From: an uncultured Chloroflexia bacterium
GTDB lineage: Bacteria > Chloroflexota > Limnocylindria > Limnocylindrales > CSP1-4
Assembly: GCA_963819655.1 (NCBI GenBank)
Contig: CAWFXA010000002.1
Location: 928,001-992,000, forward strand
Direction: 5' to 3'
Length of the DNA: 64,000 nucleotides
Shown here: piece by piece, positions 40,732 through 58,186 of the stretch
Layout of the letters: every line of letters starts with the position of its first letter
Position numbering within the stretch: the stretch's first letter is position 1
Notes under the pieces: generated by a model
What the model was told of the DNA's origin: nothing
Database searches by the model: none
The model's input: the letters and a program-made list of their open reading frames with translations, nothing else
Made by a program: the position numbers and the translations under genes

Positions 40732-40810
<79 letters not shown>

Positions 40811-41631: not shown

Positions 41632-44133
41632 ATGGAGACACTCGTCGACCTAGTCAGGGCAGGGGCGGAGCGTTTCGATCGCCGGCCGGCACTGCTGATC
41701 CGGCCCTTCTTCCGGACGCGCACTTGGCGCTACCGCGACCTCGCCTGGATCGTGCCCCGGGCCGCCCGGGTCCTCCGCGAGGCGGGCGTCGGCGAGGGCG
41801 ATCGAGTCATCGTGTGGGCCGTCAATCGACCTGAGTGGGGGATCGCGTTCTTCTCGATCGCCCACCTCGGCGCCGTATCCGTACCCCTCGATGTCCGCCA
41901 CACCGTCGACTTCGGGCGAAAGATCGTCGGCCAGACCGATGCGAAGCTCGTCATCGCCAGCCGCCAGACCGAGGCGTCGGCGCGAGAGCTCGGGCTGCCG
42001 ATCGTGTTCGTCGAGAGCCTTCCCGACGCCGCCCGGCGGGCCCAGCCGGTCGATCCGGCCCAGGTGAAGAGCGACACCCTCGCGGAGATCGTGTTCACGA
42101 GCGGCACGACGGGCGAGCCGAAGGGCGCGATGCTCAGCCACGGCAACCTGATGGCCAGCGCGACGACGATGACGAAGGTGCTGTCGTTCGGCGTCAAGGA
42201 TCGCCTGCTGTCGGTGCTCCCGCTGTCGCACCTGTACGAACAGGTCCTGGGGTTCATGGCGCCGCTGACCGTGGGCGCGAGCGTGGTCTACCCGGTGAGC
42301 CGCCAGCCCGCGGTGCTGATCCGGACGTTCCGGGACTTCAAGGTGACGGTCCTGCTGATCGTGCCGCAGGGGCTGCGCCTGCTGAATGGCGCGATCGAGC
42401 GACGGGTGGATCAGGCGGGCCGGCGGTCGACCTTCGAGCGGCTGCACGCCATCGCGCGGCGCATGCCGAAGCCGATCAAGCGCCTTCTGTTCCGATCCGT
42501 CCTCAAGGAGTTCGGCGGCCGGCTGCACACCATCGGCGTGGGCGCCTCGGCCCTCGACACCGACATCGCGCGCCGCTGGACCGATATGGGCGTGGACGTC
42601 CTCCAGGGCTACGGCGCGACCGAGATGGGTCCCGTCGTGAGCTTCACCCGCCCGAACCGGAACGTGCTCGGGACGGTCGGCGAGCCCATCCCCGGGGTCG
42701 AGGCCCGGATCGCGGAGGACGGCGAGATCCTCGCCCGCGGCCCCGGCCGCTTCGCCGGCTACTGGAAGAACCCCGAGGCGACAGCCGCCGCGATCGACGG
42801 GGAGGGCTGGTACCACACGGGCGACCTCGGGGCGTTCACGAAGGACGGGATGCTCACGTTCCGTGGCCGGAAGAAAGACATGCTCGCGTTGCCTGACGGG
42901 CAGAAGGTCTATGCCGAGGACGTCGAGGCGGTGCTGAAGGACGACGGGCGGGTCAAGGACGCAGCGATCGTCGGCTGGCCGCTTGGTGCGGGGCTCAGGG
43001 TCCACGCGGTCCTGCTGCTCGACGACCCGTCCCTCGTGGACTCGGTCGTCAAGGACGCCAACACGAGGCTGGCGCCGCATCAGCACATCCGCGGCTCGAC
43101 CGTGTGGCCGGAGCCTGACCTGCCGCGCACCCACACCTTGAAAGTGCGGAAGCCGGACATCCTCGCTGGCCTCGAGGACCTCGAGCGCCCCGCGACGGCG
43201 CCGCTCCCGGCGGCGGCGTCCAAGCTGAAGGCCGACCCGCTCGACGCGGCCGTCGATCCGATCACGGTCATCGTCGCGGGTCTCGCGGGCGTCGAGGCAT
43301 CCACGATCCGGCCGTCGGCGCGCCTGTCGACGGACCTGGACCTCGACTCGCTCCAGCGGGTGGAGCTGCTCGGCGTCATCGAGGAGGAGACGGGCGTGTT
43401 CGTGGACGACGACGCGCTCCAGCCGGACACGACCGTCGGCGAGCTGATCGGCCTAGTGGAGGAGGCACGCGGCGCGAAGCGCGTCGTTGGCGCGTGGCGC
43501 TGGCCGCTGTCACCGTTCGTCCGCGCGATCGGCCTGGCGCTGCAGGTCCTCCTGATCTACCCGTTCGTCCATGTCTTCTACAAGATCAGGGTCACCGGGC
43601 TGGAGCGATTGGATCCCGATAACGGACCGTTCCTCCTCACGCCCAATCACTGCCTTCACCTCGACAACGGGATCATCCTCAGCCGCCTGCCGCTGGGACT
43701 CCGTTGGAAGCTCTCGGTGGCCGCGGCGGCGGACACCATCTACGACAACCCGATCCGGGGAATCCTCGCCTCCGTCCTGGCGAATGCCTTCCCGCTCCAG
43801 CGCGAGGGCGGCGTGCGCAAGAGCCTCGAGCTTCTCGGCTCCAGGATGGACAAGGGCTACAACATCCTGATCTACCCCGAGGGCAAGCTCACCGTGGGTG
43901 GCCCGCTGCAGCCGTTCAAGGCCGGTGCGGGGCTGGTCGCGGTCGAGGGCGGGTCGCCGATCGTGCCGGTCAAGCTGAAGATCAACCGCATGTCGATCAT
44001 CGACAAGCGACGCCTGCCGGCCGCCCTCCGCGGCGACGTCGAGCTCGTCATCGGCGAGCCGATCTGGTTCGATTCGACGATGGACCATAACGCCGCGACC
44101 ACCCGGCTCGAGGCCGCCGTCGCGGCACTCTGA
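41632..44133 (+). CDS. acyl-AMP ligase / ACP / PlsC-type acyltransferase fusion
   Basis: FTSGTTGEPKG, QGYGATE, TGD, GRKK; carrier motif LDLDSL; NHCLHLD (HX4D) and YPEG. Confidence 0.9.
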   Translation: METLVDLVRAGAERFDRRPALLIRPFFRTRTWRYRDLAWIVPRAARVLREAGVGEGDRVIVWAVNRPEWGIAFFSIAHLGAVSVPLDVRHTVDFGRKIVGQTDAKLVIASRQTEASARELGLPIVFVESLPDAARRAQPVDPAQVKSDTLAEIVFTSGTTGEPKGAMLSHGNLMASATTMTKVLSFGVKDRLLSVLPLSHLYEQVLGFMAPLTVGASVVYPVSRQPAVLIRTFRDFKVTVLLIVPQGLRLLNGAIERRVDQAGRRSTFERLHAIARRMPKPIKRLLFRSVLKEFGGRLHTIGVGASALDTDIARRWTDMGVDVLQGYGATEMGPVVSFTRPNRNVLGTVGEPIPGVEARIAEDGEILARGPGRFAGYWKNPEATAAAIDGEGWYHTGDLGAFTKDGMLTFRGRKKDMLALPDGQKVYAEDVEAVLKDDGRVKDAAIVGWPLGAGLRVHAVLLLDDPSLVDSVVKDANTRLAPHQHIRGSTVWPEPDLPRTHTLKVRKPDILAGLEDLERPATAPLPAAASKLKADPLDAAVDPITVIVAGLAGVEASTIRPSARLSTDLDLDSLQRVELLGVIEEETGVFVDDDALQPDTTVGELIGLVEEARGAKRVVGAWRWPLSPFVRAIGLALQVLLIYPFVHVFYKIRVTGLERLDPDNGPFLLTPNHCLHLDNGIILSRLPLGLRWKLSVAAAADTIYDNPIRGILASVLANAFPLQREGGVRKSLELLGSRMDKGYNILIYPEGKLTVGGPLQPFKAGAGLVAVEGGSPIVPVKLKINRMSIIDKRRLPAALRGDVELVIGEPIWFDSTMDHNAATTRLEAAVAAL

Positions 44134-44812
44134 AGTTCGCGACGCGAGGTTCCGAAACGACCATGGGCATGAGCACCGTCGGCATCGAGCCAGTTGGAGG
44201 CTACCCGACGGATGCACTGCCGATGGGGCGAGCGACGATCACGTCGTGGCGATATTTAACCAGTGACTGCTCCGTGGACGGACCGGCCTCGCCCTCGACG
44301 TGCCTCCGACCGGGTCCCTATTCCCGACGTAAGCGCCAGGCGAACAGCGCAGCCCTCTGTCCCAGACCGTTGAAGTCGGACCACCGCGGGCCCAGGCGTC
44401 CCCCGAAGGGCCGGGCAGTGGAACCCCCTGGCGTCATGTGACGCTCGGCCAGCTCATCACCGCTGGCCTGGTCCGCGTTCACTCGACATCGAGCACCGCT
44501 ATCGCGGCACCCACCTCGCCGCACGGATTGAGCATGCCACCCGAATTCGTGTTCGAAGAAGCGCTTACGACTCGCTCTCTACGGCCGGCGGGGTGGCGCG
44601 GAAGTCGATTAGCGGGTCCCCTCCGGGACGGGACTATCCGCAAAACGAACGGCTGGACTTCTGGCAGTTCCGGCGTCCCGACGGGACCTTGGGTGTACTC
44701 GATGACCCACGGCGCGAGTTCCACGAACGGAAGGTCGTGAGCCTCGTCGATGGCCGTCGTGGCAGAGGCGTAACACGGGCGATCCTGACCGAGGTCTGCA
44801 GGGCGCGACAAT

Positions 44813-45172
44813 ATGCTGGTGAAGGCACAGCTGGTCGCGTTCGGAGACCTGCGGATCGAGGGCAAGCGGTACGAACGCGACGTGGTGATCGAGGCCGGCC
44901 GAATCCGCCGACGGCGGAAAGGCCCCTCCAAGGCGCGACGCGGTGAGTTCGGGCACACACCGTTCACCAGCGCCGAGGACATTCCCTGGGGTGGTCGGCG
45001 GCTCATCGTCGGGACGGGCGCCGATGCCGCCCTCCCGATCAGCCCTGATGTCTACGCTGAGGCGGACCGACGCGGGATCCGCATCACGGCGTTGCCGACG
45101 CGTGATGCCTGCCGCCTACTCGCGAAGCTGGACGCGACTGAGGTCTACGCGGTCCTCCACGTCACCTGTTGA
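44813..45172 (+). CDS. Mth938-like domain protein
   Basis: FG...IEGKRYERDVVI, LIVGTG, LPTRDAC, LHVTC. Confidence 0.8.
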   Translation: MLVKAQLVAFGDLRIEGKRYERDVVIEAGRIRRRRKGPSKARRGEFGHTPFTSAEDIPWGGRRLIVGTGADAALPISPDVYAEADRRGIRITALPTRDACRLLAKLDATEVYAVLHVTC

Positions 45173-45651
45173 GGCCGGTACGGGTGGGCCAATCCTGTTG
45201 CACCTCTGTATTGGAACCTCAGAGGGTCTTGGAGCTTGAGGCGGCCCGCGGACTCGCCCTGGCACACGACGATGAAGACCCGGGGTCAGGAGAGTCCCTA
45301 TCGGAAGCACCCTCAGAGTCGCTTGTCATCCTTGCACTCTCAATTCCGACGTCTGTGGGTGACGTACGACACTGCTCTCGTCACGATCCGGGATGCTCTG
45401 CTCGTGATCCTGTAGAGGGACGCTCGTCCATTGTGTGGCACGTTGGGCACGACAACATGGGTTCATCGAGTTGGGGATTCTGACACCGCAATACACGGCG
45501 CCGGTCCGCCCGGACCGGCGATCAGGCTCGCCGCAAGCCGCGGCGACGATGAGGTGCGGTCGGCGGCGAGTCGGCACGGCGTCAGGCTCGTGCCCGCAAC
45601 AGCTGGCGCTCCCGAACGTCTCCACTGGTAAACCATCCAGATGGACATGAG

Positions 45652-46320
45652 ATGCACTCGTCGCACTCACGACTCGCAACCACGATCAGCGTCGGCCTGC
45701 TCATCGCGGCCGCCTGCACGTCAGCTTCAACCCCGGCGCCGGACGTGACACCAACGGCGTCGCCGTCGATCACCATCACCCCGGCGGCCGCGAGCCCGAC
45801 AGCGGCGGCGACCCCGGCGAGCCCGAGCCCGTCAGCGACCCCTCAGCCCACCCCAGAGCCCACGCCAGTCCCCGTGCCACCGAAGCCCACCGGGGTGAGC
45901 TTCGACGAGCAGATACGCGTGAGCGACGACGAATCAGTCTTGGAGATCACCCAGACGGTCACGTGGGGAGCGCCGTGGAGCGAGGGCGTCGAGATCCGGG
46001 TCTACGGCGTGACCGACTGCATCGCCGAGCCCGCCGACCCGCCCCCGGGCACCAGTGGGCCATGCCTTGTCGTGCACACCCCCCTGCCGGCGTCGGTCCG
46101 CACGCTGCTCGCGACGGTACCGGCGTCCGACGGCGTTGTGAGCTGGACGTGGACGCAGGAATCCGGTGACTGCGACATCGGTTACCCGGCCCACGACCGC
46201 GACGGACCCGTATACCGCGCGGTCGTGCTGGCCGCCTACAGCGCGTCGGATCACTCGATCTTTGCCATCGCAGAGCCTGGCGGATGGTGGCGAGCGGGTC
46301 TTGGCGACATAGTCTGCTGA
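45652..46320 (+). CDS. hypothetical lipoprotein
   Basis: Lipobox IAAAC, long Pro/Thr/Ser linker, Cys-containing beta-rich domain. Confidence 0.65.
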   Translation: MHSSHSRLATTISVGLLIAAACTSASTPAPDVTPTASPSITITPAAASPTAAATPASPSPSATPQPTPEPTPVPVPPKPTGVSFDEQIRVSDDESVLEITQTVTWGAPWSEGVEIRVYGVTDCIAEPADPPPGTSGPCLVVHTPLPASVRTLLATVPASDGVVSWTWTQESGDCDIGYPAHDRDGPVYRAVVLAAYSASDHSIFAIAEPGGWWRAGLGDIVC

Positions 46321-46477
46321 GACCTCCTGCGCTACATCCTGTGCCTTGCTGTGGAAACGGGAGAAGCACAAGGACTCCAGCGGTCGACCCGTCGTGACCG
46401 GATGAGCACCGCCAAGCGGCATCCCAACGCATTGGCAACTGGCCACTCCGCCGGCGTCGCGGCCGCCCTGCGGTGCC

Positions 46478-46927
46478 CTACAGGGCGTTCGACTCCATCA
46501 TTGCCTTGAGATTGTTGACGTCCCGCTGAAAGGCGCGCTGAAAGACGGCCATGAGCGGCCGGCCGAATGGCTTCAAGACTCCACCGGGTTCCATCTCCCA
46601 GCGCCAGTCGACGCGCGTGCCGCCGGCGACCGACGTCAACGTGTACTTCGTCCGTCCGCTTCCTCCCCATGACGCGCTGATCAGCCGGAGCGCGAGCATC
46701 CTATTCGGCTCGAGTTCAGTGACCTCCATCACGCTCTCCATGGTCCCGCCGAAGAAGCCCTTCACCACGGCTCGCCGGCGGCTGCCCACGCCGGGTGGCC
46801 CCGGAGTGAGAAGCTCGCCTTTGATCGCGTTGGCCGCCCACCTCGGCGACAGGGTTGGATCGGTCAGGACCCCGAACACGTCCTCCACGGGACGCGCGAT
46901 CGTGACGCTGACATCCGCATTCGCCAT
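46478..46927 (-). CDS. SRPBCC (polyketide cyclase/dehydrase-like) protein
   Basis: SVTIARPVEDVF...PRW, VTELEPNR, GGTRV, NLKAMME. Confidence 0.85.
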   Translation of the reverse strand: MANADVSVTIARPVEDVFGVLTDPTLSPRWAANAIKGELLTPGPPGVGSRRRAVVKGFFGGTMESVMEVTELEPNRMLALRLISASWGGSGRTKYTLTSVAGGTRVDWRWEMEPGGVLKPFGRPLMAVFQRAFQRDVNNLKAMMESNAL

Positions 46928-47072
46928 CTCGAGCAGTCCTCTCGGTGGGCCGGCCGTGTAGTAGGCCGTCGCAGACTGAACCTTGCCTTGCGCCGAATTC
47001 GGTCGCTGGCCCGACAGGCCAAAGCGTATGGGTCTTGCGCATGAACATGGCATTCGCGCTGAAGGGTTTCGC

Positions 47073-47250
47073 TCAGGGATCCAGGCTGCCAGGATGCAGC
47101 CGCACGGCGCCAGCATCACCATCGACGGTCACCTGCTGACCGTCGCAGAGGACGGCCGTACCGTTGCCCGTCGCGACAACCGCCGGGACGCCGTACTCCC
47201 GCGCGATTATCGCCGGGTGCGAGAGGATCCCGCCGCAAGACCACGCGGTC
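47073..47250 (-). pseudogene. C-terminal fragment of a PEP-utilising phospho-His swivel domain (PEP synthase / rifamycin phosphotransferase family)
   Basis: GGILSHPAIIAREYGVPAVVATGNGT..L.DGQQVTVDG..G.V. The 5' part is missing and the break abuts site A. Confidence 0.8.
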
Positions 47251-47277
47251 TGGCCACGATTCACTCATCGTGTCGGT
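47250..47277 (+). repeat. palindromic site A
   Basis: ctGGCCACGA-TTCACTCA-TCGTGTCGGt. Confidence 0.8.
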
Positions 47278-47300
47278 CCGCGGACGGTATGTCGTGAGGT

Positions 47301-47507
47301 GTGGCCACAAACTGGTCGCGGATGACAGCAGCGGAAGTGGTGATCCTTCTTGCCGTTCAGGGCGCCACGATCTTTGCGCTTCCTTACCTCGTGCCTTCGG
47401 GGGACGGACCCACCAGGCTAGCTCTATTCGGGTTCGCTAACGTCGCCGCCTTTGCGCTGATCGGAGTTGTCAGACTCATGAAGCGGAAGCGCCTGTCGGG
47501 GCCGTAG
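47301..47507 (+). CDS. small two-TM protein (between sites A and B)
   Basis: GAGG just upstream; two hydrophobic helices and a basic tail. Start may be ATG 47322. Confidence 0.6.
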   Translation: MATNWSRMTAAEVVILLAVQGATIFALPYLVPSGDGPTRLALFGFANVAAFALIGVVRLMKRKRLSGP

Positions 47508-47547
47508 ACCCGTCGTCGGGTCGCACCTCCGTGGATCGCGGTCCTCG

Positions 47548-47575
47548 CGGCACACAATTCACTCATAGTGAGACA
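47548..47575 (+). repeat. palindromic site B
   Basis: cgGCACACAA-TTCACTCA-TAGTGAGACa. Confidence 0.75.
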
Positions 47576-47715
47576 GATATGGGTGGCATGGCCCAGACCA
47601 CTGCCCAAACTCCCACTTTGCCTATCTGAGCGCCGTGTGCGTCGCCAGGATGGTCGCACGGGCGATTGGCGCTAGCCCAGCCGCCATGAGGCACGCCAGC
47701 GGGATACTTGGCCGG

Positions 47716-48438
47716 ATGAGCACGCCACAGAAGGCGCACGTGCCAGGGAGTCGCGAGTACCTGGCCGATCTTCTGAACCGTTGGCGGGACGGTGCGATCG
47801 CGCCGCGGGATGTATTCGCCGAGGCCAGGACACTGTGGCTGTCTCGCCGATGGCCCAAGCACCACGAGCCGGGCTACGACGCGGTCGGACAAGAGGTCCT
47901 GTACTTCTTGGCCGACGCCCGCGACTTGGGCCTCATGCACGACGACATCCCAGCGCTCCTGGAGTACCTGCGCACACCTCGTTCGCGGTACGACCAGGTC
48001 CAGCAACGGTTCTCCGCCTATGTGGAGGGTGTCGACTGGGAACAGCGTGAAACCCTACAGCAAGACGACGGCTATTACGGGCCGCTGTCTCCGGATGCCG
48101 AGGACGAGCGGCATGAGATCACGTTGTCGGACCCCGACGAGCGCCGGCTTCACCGCGGAGTGCGGCTCGCGCCTGAGACCGTCTGGACTGAGGTCCGAGC
48201 CAAGTTGTGTGACCCATCCCCGAGGGACCACGAGCTCCTGGTCGACCTCGTGGAGGACCTCATGTACCGCCATGCCGACGAGTTCATCGACCGCTTGGAG
48301 GCGGTGGCCGACGAATGCCCGGCGTCACACGAACTGCTGACAACGCCTCATCTCGGCGGCATCGCAACCACCGAAGCCGCCGAACGCTTCTGGAACCTGC
48401 AGGATCGGCTCCACCAAATGGGTGACCACCATGAATGA
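47716..48438 (+). CDS. hypothetical acidic helical protein (between sites B and C)
   Basis: 240-aa ORF with typical coding bias. GATACT 7 nt before the ATG. Confidence 0.7.
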   Translation: MSTPQKAHVPGSREYLADLLNRWRDGAIAPRDVFAEARTLWLSRRWPKHHEPGYDAVGQEVLYFLADARDLGLMHDDIPALLEYLRTPRSRYDQVQQRFSAYVEGVDWEQRETLQQDDGYYGPLSPDAEDERHEITLSDPDERRLHRGVRLAPETVWTEVRAKLCDPSPRDHELLVDLVEDLMYRHADEFIDRLEAVADECPASHELLTTPHLGGIATTEAAERFWNLQDRLHQMGDHHE

Positions 48439-48504
48439 CCATGTCCATTCGATGGCCGGGCCTGCCGATGTAAGTGCTGGTAGGCGATCGCGTCTCGTCC
48501 ACGG

Positions 48505-48532
48505 AAGCACACGATCCGCTCATCGTGTCGGT
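48505..48532 (+). repeat. palindromic site C
   Basis: aaGCACACGA-TCCGCTCA-TCGTGTCGGt. Confidence 0.8.
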
Positions 48533-48574
48533 GGGATGCACCCCGGTCGGCTCGGACCGACTGACCGCAAGCGC

Positions 48575-48606
48575 AGCGGGATCGAAAGGTCCGGGACCGC
48601 TGCCGG
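48575..48606 (+). repeat. dispersed intergenic repeat, copy 2 (copy 1 at 1792-1822)
   Basis: Two 12-nt exact blocks plus GCCGG are shared with copy 1. Confidence 0.7.
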
Positions 48607-48678
48607 GCTCGTGTCAGATTAGCCATCGGGACTTAGCTGCGGCCCAGGCTGGCTGGTACGCGTCCATAGGAGGGCAAC

Positions 48679-49068
48679 ATGTCTGATCCGGTCGTCTTCA
48701 TCAGCCACTTTCGAATCAAGCAAGGCAAGGTCGATTCGCTACGGCGGGTGTCTATCGAGACGACCGACCGCCTTCGATCAGAGAAGCCACGGACGGTCCT
48801 CTTCCTCAGCTACGCCGACGAGGACCGGGGCGTTATGAGCTTTCTCCACGCCTTCGCTGACGCCGATGCGATGGACGCCCACTTCGAGGGTGCCGACGAG
48901 AGATCGCGGAGAGCGCTCGAGTTTCTTGAGCCTGTCGGTTGGGAGTTCTACGGGAAGCCGAGTGCCGCGGCGCTCGAATCGGTCCGACAAGCGGCTACGG
49001 TGTCCAGCGCGACGTTGACGGTGGAGCCGGAATACGTCGCGGGCTTCCTGCGCCTCTCGGCAGTCTGA
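48679..49068 (+). CDS. ABM-like dimeric alpha/beta-barrel protein (between sites C and D)
   Basis: AGGAGG RBS; FRIKQGK...EKPRT...HAFADADAMDAH...EFYG pattern. Confidence 0.7.
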   Translation: MSDPVVFISHFRIKQGKVDSLRRVSIETTDRLRSEKPRTVLFLSYADEDRGVMSFLHAFADADAMDAHFEGADERSRRALEFLEPVGWEFYGKPSAAALESVRQAATVSSATLTVEPEYVAGFLRLSAV

Positions 49069-49164
49069 GCTCGTAGACCCGCACTGCGACGCAAGCCTCC
49101 GAGAGGTCAGCGGTTGGAAATGGTCGGTCGAGGCGTCATGACGCCCCGCTCGCGTGCCGACTCC

Positions 49165-49192
49165 ACGCACACGATTTGCTCATTGTGTCGCG
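49165..49192 (+). repeat. palindromic site D
   Basis: acGCACACGA-TTTGCTCA-TTGTGTCGCg. Confidence 0.8.
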
Positions 49193-50153
49193 ACACCGGG
49201 GTGACGTCACACTGGTCGGCGGGGGAGACCGGCCGTTCGGCTACCGCCACGACCGACGAACCATCGAGCCGACCGAGTCGGCCGCGATCCGCGAGGCTGC
49301 CGCGCGCATCCGCGCAGGCGACAGCCTCCGCGCCGTCGCGTCCGACTGGAACGCTCGCGGGATCACGTCGGTGCGCGGTCGGCCGTGGACGGTCCAGGTC
49401 CTGCGCCGGATGCTCATGAGCGCCCGTCTGTCCGGCCAGCGCTCGTATCAGGGTGAGATCGTCGCCAAAGGCGACTGGCCACCGATCCTAACGCCCGAGG
49501 ACACGACACAGCTCCAGGCAATCCTCGGCGATCCCGCCCGGTTCACCCGTCGCACCGTCCGGCGATATCTGTTGTCGGGTGGCCTGCTCCGCTGCTCGTT
49601 GTGCGGCTCCGTACTGGTGGCTCGTCCACGCACCGATGGCACGCGCCGCTACGTATGCGCAAAGGGTCCGGGCCTGACCGGGTGCGGCCGTATCGCCGTC
49701 CTTGCCGAGCCCGTCGAGGAGTTGATCACCGGGGCCGTCCTCTATCGCCTCGACACGCCCGAACTCGCGGACGCGCTGGCAGGCAAGGCGATGGAGGATG
49801 CCGAGGCCGATGCCGCTCAAGCGTCTGTCGCCGCCGATAGAACCCAGCTTGAAGAACTGGCGCGCGCGTACGGCGAGCGCCAGATCACGTTCCCGGAATA
49901 CCTGGCCGCCCGGAAGCCGATCGAGACGCGCATCGAGGCCGGCCAGCGCAAGGTTAGCCGCCTGACGCAGACGAGCGCGCTCGCCGGTCATGTCGGCAAT
50001 GCAGCGGCGCTTCGGTCGGCCTGGGCCGACCTACCCCTGACGCGTCAGCGAGCCCTCGTGGCCGCCGTGCTCGACCGTGCGGTCGTTCGACCGGCGATCC
50101 GCGGTCGGACGCGCTTTGACTCCGACCGGATCATGCCCGAGTGGCGGCTCTGA
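49176..50153 (+). pseudogene. large serine recombinase lacking its N-terminal catalytic domain
   Basis: Starts at GGDRPFGY. Recombinase DNA-binding domain (SLRAVA..WN.RG...W, WPPIL), YLLSG.LLRCSLCG...YVC...C zinc ribbon, coiled coil, W..L...QRALV tail. No Y.R.S motif in the ORF. Confidence 0.85.
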
Positions 50154-50281
50154 CCCAGCAGCACGACGATCGTCGCGACCGTGTCCCGGTCGGTAACCTT
50201 GACCGGGACACCCTGCTCCGCGCACGTCCGTTCCGCCCATCGACGGGCGATCTCGCAGGCGTCAGCCTTGGTCACGCCCAT
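50045..50281 (-). CDS. small protein coupled to Rep and antisense-overlapping the recombinase 3' end (candidate RDF)
   Basis: MGVTKADACEIARRWAERTCAEQGVPVKVTDRDTVATIVVLLG... Its start overlaps the Rep stop codon. Confidence 0.55.
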   Translation of the reverse strand: MGVTKADACEIARRWAERTCAEQGVPVKVTDRDTVATIVVLLGQSRHSGMIRSESKRVRPRIAGRTTARSSTAATRAR

Positions 50282-50748
50282 GACGCCCACAGCGCGGGCG
50301 GTCCGTCCCACGCTTGCTCGTCCCGCGACCGCCAGACCCGCTCAGCTGGGGCGCCCATGTACGTCTCGGCCCAGTCGATGACCTCGTCGGCCGACGTGCC
50401 GTGGATGGGCACCCCGCGCGGCTGGAACCCTTGCGCGACCTCGTAGCGATGGAGCCCGGACGGCTGGCCGCCTAGCGCCAGGTCCTTGCCGACGTACTTC
50501 GCGAGGTAGCGCGCGGCCAAACGTGCCTCGCCGAGTGACCCTGAGCCGACCGGCAGATCGCCGAGCAGCTTGATGTGGACGTGCCCGCGGCCCCATGCCC
50601 GCTTGATGTCTCCGTGGGCGATCCAGCGCCCGACGGCGAAATGCGCATGGAGGCCGTGCCCACCGGGGTGCCATTCCGGCGCCCACAGGTACGGGAGTGG
50701 CTCGCCTACCGCCCCGCGGAGTCGCCATGCGTGCACCCATACGCCCAA
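50272..50748 (-). pseudogene. rolling-circle HUH replication initiator, N-terminally truncated
   Basis: PYLWAPEWH..GHGLHAHF (HUH motif 2), W..G.V.I, and ARYLAKYVGK (motif 3 Tyr). No motif 1 upstream. Confidence 0.8.
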
Positions 50749-50883
50749 GCTGATGCGCTGCCGCTCGATCCGGCGATCGAGCCGGTTTCGATCTCCAAGG
50801 CCAACGCCGAGGAACAGCGCGCGATCGACCTATGCATCTCCTTCGCAGCGTCTGCCAACTCCGAGCCGAGATCGGAGGCCGAG

Positions 50884-51321
50884 TTACCCGAGGAACGGGG
50901 CCGGCTCCCCAGACTCCGCGTATGCCTTCAGGGCTCCGACGATCCGGCCCCACGTGTAGTTCACCCGCGCGTACTCGTCGTCGGGATAGTCGGCACCCCA
51001 GCCATCGTGCACGAAGGCCAGCGCCGTCCCGTGCCCGGACGGCGCTGGCGTGAGCGTCCAGCTGACCGTCGTCCCGGCCCAGTGAGGAAAGTCGCCGAGA
51101 CATGACCAGCGGACCTGCTGGCCCGGGCTCAGCTCATCGATCTGCATTCGCAGGTCGACGGGCGCTGATGGGAACCCGAACCGGGCGATCGAGCCAACCG
51201 CCGGCTCGACGTCGCAATCCGACGTCCAGAAGGCGGCTTCACCAGCCTGCGTGGTGATGGCTTCGTAGATCCGTTGTGCGTCGCTGTCCACGTCCACGGT
51301 GTGGAGCATCGGTCCGGTCAT
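50884..51321 (-). CDS. SRPBCC/AHSA1-like protein
   Basis: IYEAITT..G...FW, VRWSC, WAGT, FVHDGW, W...LKAYAESG. Confidence 0.85.
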   Translation of the reverse strand: MTGPMLHTVDVDSDAQRIYEAITTQAGEAAFWTSDCDVEPAVGSIARFGFPSAPVDLRMQIDELSPGQQVRWSCLGDFPHWAGTTVSWTLTPAPSGHGTALAFVHDGWGADYPDDEYARVNYTWGRIVGALKAYAESGEPAPFLG

Positions 51322-51791
51322 GGTTGATCTCCTGCTTGTTGCGATGTTTCGTCATCGAACCTCGCCTCGAGGCGTCGGCCGAGTTGGCGAAGGTCCGCCT
51401 CCAGGCTTCTCTTGATCTGGCGGCTCACGATCGGCCGCGCTAGACGCATCACCAAGCCGTATCCGCCGGTGACTCGCAGCCGTACCCGTGAGCCGGCTCC
51501 CTCGGGTTCGACGCCATAGGTCACCCCCATCGGAAACGGGGCCTTGACCGACTCCATGACCAGGAGACGGTCCGGGATGTGCTCCACGACCCGCAGCACG
51601 TAGTCGATCTGTCGACCCATGAACCTGGCCACTCGATGGGTCTCGGTGCCGACGGCCACAGGTGCGGTCGGCGGGTCGACCCGCTCGATCCCGGTGATCC
51701 AGGCGGGGTCGTGATGCGGGTCGAACATGTAAGCCGCGACGTCGTCTGGCGACCTGGCCACGTGGGCATCCACTCGGACATCGAACGGCAT
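51318..51791 (-). CDS. SRPBCC protein
   Basis: AGGAGG RBS; VAAYMFDP.HDPAW, ARFMGRQI.Y, PFPM, DLRQL. Confidence 0.82.
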   Translation of the reverse strand: MPFDVRVDAHVARSPDDVAAYMFDPHHDPAWITGIERVDPPTAPVAVGTETHRVARFMGRQIDYVLRVVEHIPDRLLVMESVKAPFPMGVTYGVEPEGAGSRVRLRVTGGYGLVMRLARPIVSRQIKRSLEADLRQLGRRLEARFDDETSQQAGDQP

Positions 51792-51869
51792 TGGGCTCCT
51801 CCTTGTTTTAGCCGTGGCTATAGTAGCGACCATGGCGCACCTATTCAAGTGAGCGCTAAAGTACGTGGC

Positions 51870-52175
51870 GTGGATGTGATCACGGCCATCGCTGCGCCGC
51901 GGAGGCGCGAGATCCTGCACCTCATCTGGGATCGCGAGTTGAGCGCGGGCGACATCGCTGCGGCTCTCCCGGTCACCTTCGGCGCTGTCTCGCAGCACCT
52001 ACAGATCCTGCGCGACGCCGGCATCGTCGACGTTCGCCAGGAGGGCACCTACCGCTACTACCGCGCCAACCAGGAGCGCATCGGCCCCCTGGCGGCCGTC
52101 CTCGAAGCGTATTGGACGGACGCTCTCGACCGGCTCGCCGACGCAGCCGAACGCGATGAGACGGCAGCAACGTGA
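51870..52175 (+). CDS. ArsR/SmtB-family regulator
   Basis: AIAAPRRREIL...AGDIA...AVSQHL.ILRDAG.V...GTYRYY. TAAAGT 7 nt before the GTG. Confidence 0.9.
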   Translation: MDVITAIAAPRRREILHLIWDRELSAGDIAAALPVTFGAVSQHLQILRDAGIVDVRQEGTYRYYRANQERIGPLAAVLEAYWTDALDRLADAAERDETAAT

Positions 52176-52633
52176 GCGCGCAGGTCGTTAGGATCATGGT
52201 GACCCGCCGGATCCGAGCACTGCCCGAGCGGGTCTACGGGTTCTTCACCGATGCCGCACTTTGGGCTAGTTGGCAGGGCACCTCGGCCACCGTCGACCCT
52301 CGCCCTGGCGGCATCCTGCAGATCGCGATGGGCCCGGACGGCACGGGATTGGCCGAAGGACGCTTCGTGGAGTTGGAACCCTTCGAGCGGATCGTCTTCA
52401 CCTGGGGATGGGCGAGCAGTCCCCTCTCGAGCCTGCCGCCGGGCTCCACCGTCGTCACGATCCACCTCCGTGCCGACGGCGATGGGACGATCGTGACGCT
52501 GACCCACGATTCGCTGCCCCCGAGCGAGCGCGACATCCACGAGGCCGGATGGTCGCTCTATCTGGACCGACTCGTGATGGTTGGCGAAGGCGGCGATCCG
52601 GGTCCCGATCCGTCTCTTGCGGGAACGGAGTAG
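52172..52633 (+). CDS. SRPBCC/AHSA1 protein
   Basis: PERVY.FFTD, DPRPGG, ERIVFTWGW, LTH, HEAGW..YLDRL. GTGA overlap with the ArsR gene. Confidence 0.88.
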   Translation: MSAQVVRIMVTRRIRALPERVYGFFTDAALWASWQGTSATVDPRPGGILQIAMGPDGTGLAEGRFVELEPFERIVFTWGWASSPLSSLPPGSTVVTIHLRADGDGTIVTLTHDSLPPSERDIHEAGWSLYLDRLVMVGEGGDPGPDPSLAGTE

Positions 52634-52660
52634 TCGCGGCCGCGGCGTTACGATCCGACG

Positions 52661-53155
52661 ATGACGAGGCTCCCGGATGGTTTTGAGGTCCAGGGTCCGG
52701 TCCAAGCCGAGGTCTTCGTCGTTTGGCTTGCCGGCGATCACCTCGAACTGACCGGTCCGTGCGGCGCCGCTCCCTGGCTGATCGAACTCGGGTCGGAGGA
52801 CCATCCGGTCGATGTCGTGACCCGGATCGTCAGCGAAGAGGTCGGCGTGCCGCTCCTCGTCCATTCCACATCCTGGCGGCGCGACCGCGAGGCAGTCATC
52901 CTCAGTTTCGTCGCGGTGATCGACCGGGGCCTCGTCGGATCGATGGCGAGCCTGCCGATCGAGCGAGCCGCGTTGGCGCGCGGGGAAGCCACGGCGGCTC
53001 CCCAGGACATCGCGACGACGCAGGTCGTCGAGCATGGGTTGCGACACATGGCCTGGCTGGCCGAGGACGATCCGGTGGTCGCGGCCAGACTGTCTCCGGA
53101 CTGGCGCGCCGTCCTCTCGACCTATGTCCCAGAGCCGTTCCGCAATCTCGGCTGA
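52661..53155 (+). CDS. hypothetical protein (possibly degenerate NUDIX-like fold)
   Basis: Co-oriented in the ArsR operon; HSTSWR and EHGLRHMAWL...DP segments. Confidence 0.7.
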   Translation: MTRLPDGFEVQGPVQAEVFVVWLAGDHLELTGPCGAAPWLIELGSEDHPVDVVTRIVSEEVGVPLLVHSTSWRRDREAVILSFVAVIDRGLVGSMASLPIERAALARGEATAAPQDIATTQVVEHGLRHMAWLAEDDPVVAARLSPDWRAVLSTYVPEPFRNLG

Positions 53156-57729: not shown

Positions 57730-57882
57730 GTCCCGGCCCGGTACGCGAACAGACGGCGTCGGCCAATCGTGGATCGGCGGTCGGTTCGTCGGTCGTGGGC
57801 ATTTGACCTGGCGCGGACAATTGAGGTCACCGCGGTCCCGCGCCGCATGACCCCGATCTCGTGGCGCGCCAAGGAGAGCCTG

Positions 57883-58164
57883 ATGCAGGCACCGAGCCCG
57901 TTCCCGGCCAGCGTCCTACGGCCTCCGTCCCCCTCGGCGCGCTGCACCTGCAAACATTGGGTCTATTGCGATTGCACGTGTCACGGCCGGTACTGCGATC
58001 CGTCCGAGAACATGTGCGACCTCGCCTTCCTGCCCGACGACGGCGGCCTCGCCTATTGGGGCTGCGCGGGTTGCACACCCGGTGAGGGGGCGCTGCACTA
58101 TCTCGGATGCGAGCTGATCGGCTGGAACGTGCCACTCGGAGGCACCCCGGAAACCCCGCAGTAA
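57883..58164 (+). CDS. small Cys-rich protein
   Basis: AAGGAG RBS; 93 aa with 10 Cys and 3 His. Confidence 0.7.
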   Translation: MQAPSPFPASVLRPPSPSARCTCKHWVYCDCTCHGRYCDPSENMCDLAFLPDDGGLAYWGCAGCTPGEGALHYLGCELIGWNVPLGGTPETPQ

Positions 58165-58186
58165 CCTGATCTCGGAGGATCACCGG

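Follow-up and report, generated by a model that had tools for sequence, protein, structure and literature searches.

Four direct copies of a short lox-like site in a Limnocylindrales accessory island: a candidate orphan gene-cassette array of a mobile Xer-like recombinase

What are the four related palindromic sites that divide a short stretch of DNA into gene-sized segments in the genome of an uncultured Chloroflexia bacterium (Limnocylindrales; CSP1-4)? The stretch analyzed here, called the window, comprises 64,000 nucleotides (contig CAWFXA010000002.1, positions 928,001 to 992,000), and a first-pass annotation made from its letters alone had proposed a gene-cassette array delimited by Xer/cer-like sites, with the recombinase acting in trans. 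Comparison of the window with its own genome, with 400 genomes of the family (Ca. Limnocylindrales) and with metagenome contigs suggests an answer along these lines. Sites A to D are probably tyrosine-recombinase core sites of a mobile Xer/Cre-like enzyme encoded elsewhere in the genome, and together they would form an orphan, integron-like array.

All four sites were found on the + strand in one orientation, as the first-pass annotation had stated, but its coordinates were 2 bp too low. Site A (47252-47275; GGCCACGATTCACTCATCGTGTCG; 28.2 bits) is read as GGCCACGAT-TCACTC-ATCGTGTCG, site B (47550-47573; GCACACAATTCACTCATAGTGAGA; 20.6 bits) as GCACACAAT-TCACTC-ATAGTGAGA, site C (48507-48530; GCACACGATCCGCTCATCGTGTCG; 37.4 bits), the consensus copy, as GCACACGAT-CCGCTC-ATCGTGTCG, and site D (49167-49190; GCACACGATTTGCTCATTGTGTCG; 32.3 bits) as GCACACGAT-TTGCTC-ATTGTGTCG. 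The start-to-start distances are 298, 957 and 660 bp, exactly as claimed. An alignment including 60-bp flanks showed that approximately 22 to 24 columns are common to the four sites and that the flanks are unrelated. Comparison with relatives gave as the best reading two inverted 8-bp arms around an asymmetric 6-bp spacer (CACACGAT / NNNNTC / ATCGTGTS). Thus, the proposed core-site layout of tyrosine recombinases, with inverted arms and an asymmetric spacer, was retained, but the 8-bp spacer was not, the structure being 8-6-8 rather than 8-8-8. The resemblance of the arms to those of E. coli dif through transitions, noted by the first-pass annotation, is given no weight here. Site B is a degenerate or decayed copy with five arm mismatches and a spacer identical to that of site A; the array therefore contains TCACTC twice (A and B), CCGCTC (C) and TTGCTC (D).

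In the window, the number of matches to the arms alone is not above chance. A scan allowing up to three mismatches gave 4 matches versus 2.54 expected, a number reached by 22 of 100 shuffles; it recovered A, C and D together with one unrelated - strand match and missed B. When the conserved CTCAT was included in the motif, five matches were detected in the whole 3.49-Mb genome, four in the array and one distant, versus none for the reversed control. The arms-only pattern CACGAT-N6-ATCGTGT (up to one mismatch) matched 13 places in the genome versus none for the control. Folding yielded weak hairpins of 6 to 7 pairs (-2.6 to -9 kcal/mol; z-scores, -0.1 to -2.8), and a folded attC-like or REP-like (repetitive extragenic palindromic) reading of the sites was dropped because of this weakness. 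Simple scans revealed no promoter-like hexamers or terminator-like signals at the sites, and no Rfam family was found in window positions 44000-53000 or in two related loci.

The site is not confined to the window. With up to one mismatch, the motif was present in 31 of the 400 family genomes, at 45 places including the window genome's own two, versus no match of the reversed-control motif in all 401 genomes. The counts are thus far above the controls (5 versus 0 in the genome, 45 versus 0 in the family), not at the background frequency that the first-pass annotation had named as an outcome speaking against its proposal. Since only 31 of 400 family genomes carry the motif, the site is not a universal dif. 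Across the family, the flanks of its copies are unrelated and the contexts are many and different. Among GTDB species representatives, 14 exact matches were detected, 11 of them in records named Limnocylindrales, Chloroflexi, Chloroflexia or Dehalococcoidia, and in metagenomes at least 80 contigs contained the exact site. Among the metagenome matches listed, 18 distinct contigs had at least two sites, 12 of them wholly co-oriented and one with five sites. A relative from the same genus (G308) also carries a co-oriented site array. Relatives and metagenome contigs thus contain co-oriented arrays with gene-sized spacing, the site-to-site distance being 277 to 3088 bp (15 intervals). No gene family recurred beside the sites in 29, and later in 71, site-centred loci, with the sole exception of a recombinase gene, and this argues against a regulon. 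The neighbors of the window-type sites were not conserved, in contrast to the fixed position upstream of conserved genes that the first-pass annotation had listed as a second adverse outcome.

The exception is a gene for a tyrosine recombinase of approximately 322 aa, which directly follows a site in 3 of the 20 site-centred loci of 20 kb. The family of this protein is present in 45 of the 400 family genomes, often in 2 to 5 or more copies per genome that are 76 to 82% identical within a genome. No tyrosine recombinase was found among the window open reading frames (ORFs) examined. The window's genome nevertheless has an intact copy (C2:733393-734355; 71% identical, 100% open frame) in a tRNA-Thr island approximately 240 kb from the array, so that the postulated recombinase in trans has a catalytically intact candidate. 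In an alignment of five copies, the catalytic residues R170-172, K197/K200, H268-x-x-R271, H294 and Y303 were invariant, and the Pfam content consisted of Phage_integrase and a weak SAM-like N-domain, with nothing else. From its sequence, the protein is predicted to be a two-domain, simple (arm-less) tyrosine recombinase with a full catalytic set. The own genome contains two further, more distant tyrosine recombinase genes. In metagenomes, at least 3498 homologues of the recombinase were detected at an E value of ≤1e-20, many of them on contigs of 1.0 to 1.2 kb, with generic names only.

The nearest solved relatives are XerD, the archaeal XerA, XerH and the Brujita integrase gp33 (5vfz; E value, 1e-4). 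In line with this, the best NCBIfam families are XerC, XerD and XerA, all below their cut-offs (XerC and XerD, 99 and 98 bits; cut-offs, 335 and 330), and the integron-integrase models gave only 38.9 and 27.7 bits (cut-offs, 265 and 435). By score and by copy number, the protein is not a member of the XerC/XerD chromosome-dimer resolvases.

The recombinase gene and the site are closely linked. We analyzed 33 recombinase loci, of which 2 are cut by contig ends upstream, and each of the 31 assessable loci had a same-arm site, read by eye, approximately 65 to 90 bp before the recombinase start codon. The first-pass annotation had proposed to look for a tyrosine recombinase gene near the motif, and a same-arm site does occupy a fixed place upstream of the Xer-like gene. 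This proximal site is followed by a conserved leader, TTGCWWT..CCTGAGTGA. Recombinase copies are homologous in DNA sequence from the site up to the stop codon. Furthermore, three approximately 90% identical copies in one genome have different left arms and differ in the first three bases of the spacer, but share the sequence from there on, which places the junction inside the site.

Further sites (≥17 bits) around 47 recombinase loci were distributed on one side only: 18 were upstream, 16 of them co-oriented, and none was downstream, in 128 kb versus 147 kb (binomial p, 1e-6). When the three loci that had been fetched with the motif were dropped, 12 upstream sites (all co-oriented) and no downstream site remained. 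In addition, the presence of the recombinase is associated with that of the motif, with 14 of the 31 motif genomes but only 31 of the 369 others harboring the gene (odds ratio, 9.0; p, 5e-7), a comparison in which related genomes are not independent.

Downstream of the recombinase, other features were observed. In five loci (L110, L111, L118, L073 and L077), 5'-truncated recombinase remnants comprising the last 60 to 170 nt, up to the stop codon, are located 0.6 to 4.6 kb downstream of an intact copy, and L118 has three such remnants in a row. Full-length large serine recombinase genes follow the Xer-like gene 2.3 to 3.8 kb further downstream, with the same orientation, in seven loci of one type (L125, L124, L122, L113, L120, L108 and L083) and in two of another (L056 and L067). 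Possibly, the tyrosine recombinase is a passenger of larger elements whose integration depends on the serine enzyme. In L125, there is a weak small-terminase match between the tyrosine and serine recombinase genes.

Returning to the window, we compared the surroundings of the array with relatives. Genus-wide synteny stops at the 3' end of a tRNA-Pro gene (40732-40808, + strand), which marks it as the left border of an accessory island with the array; past this gene, synteny with 40 genus genomes was too poor for a clean empty-site comparison. The G+C content drops from approximately 0.70-0.72 to 0.62-0.65 over 45 to 49 kb. Both outer sites lie at gene breakpoints, as had been claimed. At site A, a 3' fragment of a gene for a phosphoenolpyruvate (PEP)-utilising enzyme (47073-47264, - strand) retains the last approximately 55 residues of the mobile domain (profile positions 31-72 of 72), and its similarity to full-length relatives begins at residue 7 to 9, which is 6 to 14 bp left of the site. 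At site D, a large serine recombinase gene (49176-50153, + strand) lacks the catalytic N-terminal part of approximately 155 aa when compared with an intact 466-aa relative in G340. The intact relatives in G340 and G417 align from position 49212, 22 bp past site D. No resolvase domain was found anywhere in the own genome, which is 91% complete. A 5'-truncated gene for an HUH replication initiator (50272-50748, - strand; PF23343; homology ends at 50726) belongs to the same decayed integrative element as the serine recombinase.

The junctions were analyzed with contigs of four rhizosphere runs of one study, which were placed on window positions 46500-50500; all of these data are assembled contigs. 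None of the sequencing runs contained more than 0.10 of the sampled words, and stretches without cover are uninformative. Two contigs (runs X1 and X3) track the window up to position 47254, in site A, and then diverge, and two contigs from the same runs track the segment with the ABM-like gene up to position 49187, in site D, and then diverge. A third contig (X2) shares just 48646-49070 with the window and has other flanks on both sides. We conclude that related strains differ at the edges of sites A and D. The upstream regions of intact serine recombinase genes did not match the divergent letters at 47254.

Further evidence comes from the G308 island, which shares two gene-sized modules with the window island; they are approximately 90% identical, stand in a different order and have unrelated flanks. 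The first module contains the ABM-like gene, behind which G308 has a degenerate site, recognized by eye. The second consists of a Cys-rich 131-aa gene (ORF 57769-58164) with its upstream region (window 57797-58172; 90% identical), and its counterpart in G308 is located between two sites of the array (L096 901-1274). The Cys-rich gene looks like a gene-sized module shuffled between islands. Loci L044 and L051 were considered as an occupied/empty pair and were unusable, having a response-regulator gene alone in common. The expectation that synteny breakpoints coincide with the sites was borne out for two of the four sites, A and D, which are strain junctions, but gain or loss of a cassette at the sites was not found.

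Each interval of the array contains one + strand gene. Segment 1 has an ORF for a 68-aa hydrophobic protein (47301-47507; two hydrophobic stretches by eye) of uncertain coding status, with a G+C content of 0.70 at third codon positions (GC3) versus 0.51 at second positions (GC2) and no Pfam family at an E value of 0.01. The segment 2 gene (47635-48438), with an uncertain start codon, encodes an acidic 267-aa protein, acid267, with a weak DUF6869 match below the cut-off (E value, 0.0034). The segment 3 gene (48679-49068) encodes a 129-aa protein with a weak ABM match, also below the cut-off (E value, 0.017), and 91% identical DNA is present in G308, limited to window positions 48659-49079. For the 68-aa and 267-aa genes, no DNA relatives were found among the 400 family genomes, and window proteins searched against the first 29 site loci gave no matches. 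A 48% identical relative of acid267 was detected in G417, 3.7 kb from a related serine-recombinase/Rep element, and acid267 may belong to the old serine-recombinase/Rep element and not be an independent arrival. Accordingly, the count of one gene per interval given by the first-pass annotation stands, but the unrelatedness of these genes to their surroundings is qualified by the position of the acid267 relative.

These data can be accommodated in the following model. The sites would be double-stranded core recombination sites of a Limnocylindrales-specific family of simple (arm-less) Xer/Cre-like tyrosine recombinases, and the recombinase would be a multi-copy unit of approximately 1 kb beginning inside such a site. 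Gene-sized DNA circles would be inserted repeatedly at the gene-proximal site, giving rise to one-sided, co-oriented arrays; such repeated insertion would explain why further sites are found upstream only and in the same orientation. The window array would be an orphan in a decayed tRNA-Pro island, with three gene-sized segments between four sites, and its outer sites A and D would be recombination junctions with the truncated PEP-utiliser and serine recombinase genes. The lack of an adjacent recombinase and the position of the outer sites at truncated genes would fit site-adjacent deletions or recombination with secondary sites, and the recombinase unit may have been lost by such a site-adjacent deletion, leaving the array orphaned. 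The only candidate enzyme would then be the intact homologue approximately 240 kb away. We infer that this recombinase binds and cuts sites A to D and that the segments entered as circles. Differing spacers would keep the array from collapsing, since under the matching-spacer rule partner sites need matching spacers. A broader proposition, namely that Limnocylindrales carry a working, as yet undescribed integron-like gene-capture platform consisting of a mobile Xer-like unit and a 22-bp lox-like site, is possible but distinctly more doubtful.

Several observations weigh against this model. No cassette movement was observed, no circle joints were reported in assembled contigs, and no cassette was found twice with breakpoints at sites; nine further loci with ABM homologues had no site of ≥12 bits, the degenerate one in G308 being recognized by eye only. 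The junction contigs come from one study, and their divergent part was compared over the first 30 letters only. The recombinase is present in just 3 of the 20 site-centred loci and on none of the 80 listed metagenome contigs with an exact site, and it was not found in 17 of the 31 motif genomes, many of which are incomplete metagenome-assembled genomes (MAGs). Of 92 sites with a CTC spacer on metagenome contigs, none had the recombinase leader behind it, and the spacer of the proximal site in the own genome, CCCGGC, matches none of the four window spacers. The interval genes were co-oriented with the sites in just 9 of 15 cases (6 of 12 outside the window). Furthermore, the model accounts neither for the mobility of the recombinase unit itself, which lacks a full site on its right side, nor for the 5'-truncated remnants downstream of intact copies. 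The sharp homology borders between distant copies may result from selective constraint and not from junctions, an objection that the approximately 90% identical pairs escape. The 3' end of the recombinase (GCSAT-CGGGGT-CTGA) was considered as a half-site or source of a circle junction and rejected, the spacers at the two ends being mismatched.

The points concerning the absent recombinase would suit a system that works without a dedicated mobile enzyme, in which dif-like sites are used by the host XerC and XerD, as in the dif modules of Acinetobacter. The arm-spacer-arm structure with a 6-bp spacer is appropriate for Xer sites, the window-type sites were never recombinase-proximal, the mobile enzyme was not found in the 17 motif genomes mentioned above, and the two more distant tyrosine recombinase genes in the genome would be at hand. 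We nonetheless regard host Xer usage as unlikely. The motif is too rare in the family (31 of 400 genomes) for a chromosomal dif, and sites with the same arms are fixed beside the mobile recombinase gene, where they accumulate upstream only. In addition, motif and recombinase are associated across genomes, and all four window sites are direct, whereas in dif modules the orientation of the sites alternates.

Alternatively, the palindrome could be the operator of a DNA-binding regulator on mobile elements, repeated before element genes including that of the recombinase. Its fixed distance upstream of the recombinase start would be expected of an operator, every window site precedes a + strand ORF, and another repeat family in the same genomes resembles a repeated upstream motif. 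This interpretation has a small chance of being correct. The genes beside the sites are not conserved, the scans revealed no promoter-like hexamers at the sites, and in just 9 of the 15 cases do the interval genes share the orientation of the sites. Moreover, the asymmetric spacer keeps its orientation (16 of the 18 sites upstream of the recombinase), the sites coincide with gene truncations and strain junctions, and in near-identical recombinase copies the junction lies inside the site.

The recombinase fragment next to site D draws attention to serine enzymes, and the sites might be attachment sites of large serine recombinases, comparable to the repeats delimiting tandem SCC (staphylococcal cassette chromosome) elements, with the truncated enzyme as a remnant. 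The homology of the fragment begins only 22 bp past the site, and large serine recombinases accompany the tyrosine recombinase at 2.3 to 3.8 kb in the seven and two loci listed above. We consider this very unlikely, since no such site was present near the intact serine recombinase relatives in G340 and G417, the genome is devoid of any resolvase domain, and it is the tyrosine recombinase gene that has the site in a fixed position. With 22 bp (8-6-8), the site is also below the typical length of serine-integrase att sites. Finally, functionless chance similarity or local duplication, for which the background-level arm matches in the window and the degeneracy of site B could be cited, is already contradicted by the control comparisons (5 genome matches and 45 family places versus none), by the unrelated flanks, which exclude segmental duplication, and by the identical site type in many unrelated contexts, and its probability is negligible.

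How does a mobile Xer/Cre-like recombinase with an array of short sites compare with known systems? Cre/loxP-type systems (Cre, Dre, Vika/vox, Nigri/nox and newer ones) are similar in having a simple recombinase without an arm-binding domain and a palindromic target with an asymmetric spacer beside the gene. The target is 13-8-13 (34 bp) there and 8-6-8 (22 bp) here; in sequence, the present protein resembles XerD and XerA more closely than Cre, and its gene is chromosomal and multi-copy (up to 5 or more per genome). A site beside the gene, as in Cre/lox, was found at 31 of 31 loci, whereas the four window sites share its arms but not its position. Arrays of several direct sites around genes, as observed here, are not a Cre-type feature. 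According to PMC10250229, Cre-type recombinases have palindromic targets beside their genes, and two sites are presumed, as a working presumption, to recombine only if their spacers match. PMC8138268 links subgroups of simple tyrosine recombinases to mobile elements.

Integrons likewise combine a tyrosine recombinase and its proximal site with a one-sided array of co-oriented sites, which delimit mostly gene-sized segments whose content is very diverse. A one-sided co-oriented array is indeed formed at the recombinase loci (18 sites upstream versus 0 downstream), but the window array itself has no adjacent recombinase. Integron-integrase-less clusters of attC sites (CALINs) are known and are comparable to such orphan arrays. 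The attC sites are 57 to 141 nt long and folded, in contrast to the 22-bp duplex-type palindromes with weak hairpins described here. The recombinase is not of the IntI type, which carries a characteristic extra domain, its scores being far below the integron-integrase cut-offs. Moreover, the recombinase gene points in the same direction as the sites and does not diverge from them, and the interval genes have no consistent orientation.

The Acinetobacter dif modules are alike in that their short Xer-type sites enclose accessory genes one by one and are served by a recombinase in trans. The pdif sites are 28 bp long (11-6-11), alternate in orientation and are found on plasmids. In contrast to the pdif layout, sites A to D are 8-6-8, all direct and chromosomal, and their family is tied to a dedicated mobile recombinase. 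Brujita-type arm-less integrases, XerS/difSL and XerH/difH also are simple tyrosine recombinases that act on small sites, and in XerS and XerH modules the cognate site is beside the gene. These systems have one site per replicon or phage, in contrast to the arrays found here, and the only hint of a phage context for our recombinase is one weak small-terminase match. The locus is thus neither a strict integron (no IntI, no attC) nor a dif module (direct and not alternating sites); the system appears to work like Cre/lox or Xer/dif and to look like an integron in its architecture. Of the integron-like or dif-module-like accretion originally proposed, the layout, a candidate enzyme in trans and the arrays were supported, but cassette movement and assignment to either class in the strict sense did not.

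Literature on recombinases of Limnocylindria yielded no paper, and among the papers on integron-like systems, represented mostly by their titles and the openings of their abstracts, none matched. The candidate gene-cassette array looks like a kind not yet described. If the model is correct, a second and mechanistically simpler route to integron-like gene accretion, based on short duplex sites and an Xer-type enzyme, would exist in an uncultured, abundant soil lineage, and the capture platform would be abundant in soil metagenomes, as the at least 3498 recombinase homologues suggest. It would also provide a compact new recombinase and a 22-bp target with natural heterospecific spacers useful for genome engineering. 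In Chloroflexota MAGs, the site could help to locate accessory DNA. Should the sites not be substrates of the recombinase, the locus would be no more than a scarred, decayed genomic island.

The window and its relatives contain additional repeats and genes. Between site C and the ABM-like gene, DNA comparison revealed a GC-rich dispersed repeat of approximately 85 nt with internal hairpins (48541-48623, + strand) that matched no Rfam family. Three copies of it are located upstream of genes in G419, many are present in the genus genomes, and another is found in the own genome at C3:496577. To the right of the decayed element (50884-52633), there are three SRPBCC/AHSA1-type genes and a gene for an ArsR-type regulator, the latter judged by the look of its sequence. 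Another SRPBCC gene lies left of the array (46478-47122), and in G419 a 91% identical relative of this gene comes after a copy of the 85-nt repeat.

In five loci of genus g9 (L083, L084, L088, L089 and L091), a conserved element of approximately 125 nt with two or three AGATAAG direct repeats was detected 150 to 870 bp downstream of the recombinase. After it comes a stretch of approximately 85 nt closed by GGGTCGGG...CCCGACCC, beyond which homology stops sharply, and this conserved DNA could be a structured RNA or the end of an element.

The tRNA-Thr island of the own genome harbors a further repeat family. At C2:726177-730171 (L065 6177-10171), 3 kb from the Xer-like gene, there are eight co-oriented repeats of approximately 36 nt with the core AGTGTCCGGGAATGTCACC, spaced 369 to 802 bp, at least three of which are just upstream of a small minus-strand ORF. 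This array is regarded as a feature separate from the recombinase, because in three relatives it is not near the recombinase gene. Clusters of a 19-mer from the repeat were also detected in G417 (three, of which one adjoins the serine-recombinase/Rep element), G316 and G081, versus no match for the control. The repeat could be a repeated promoter or operator or a second cassette-type repeat.

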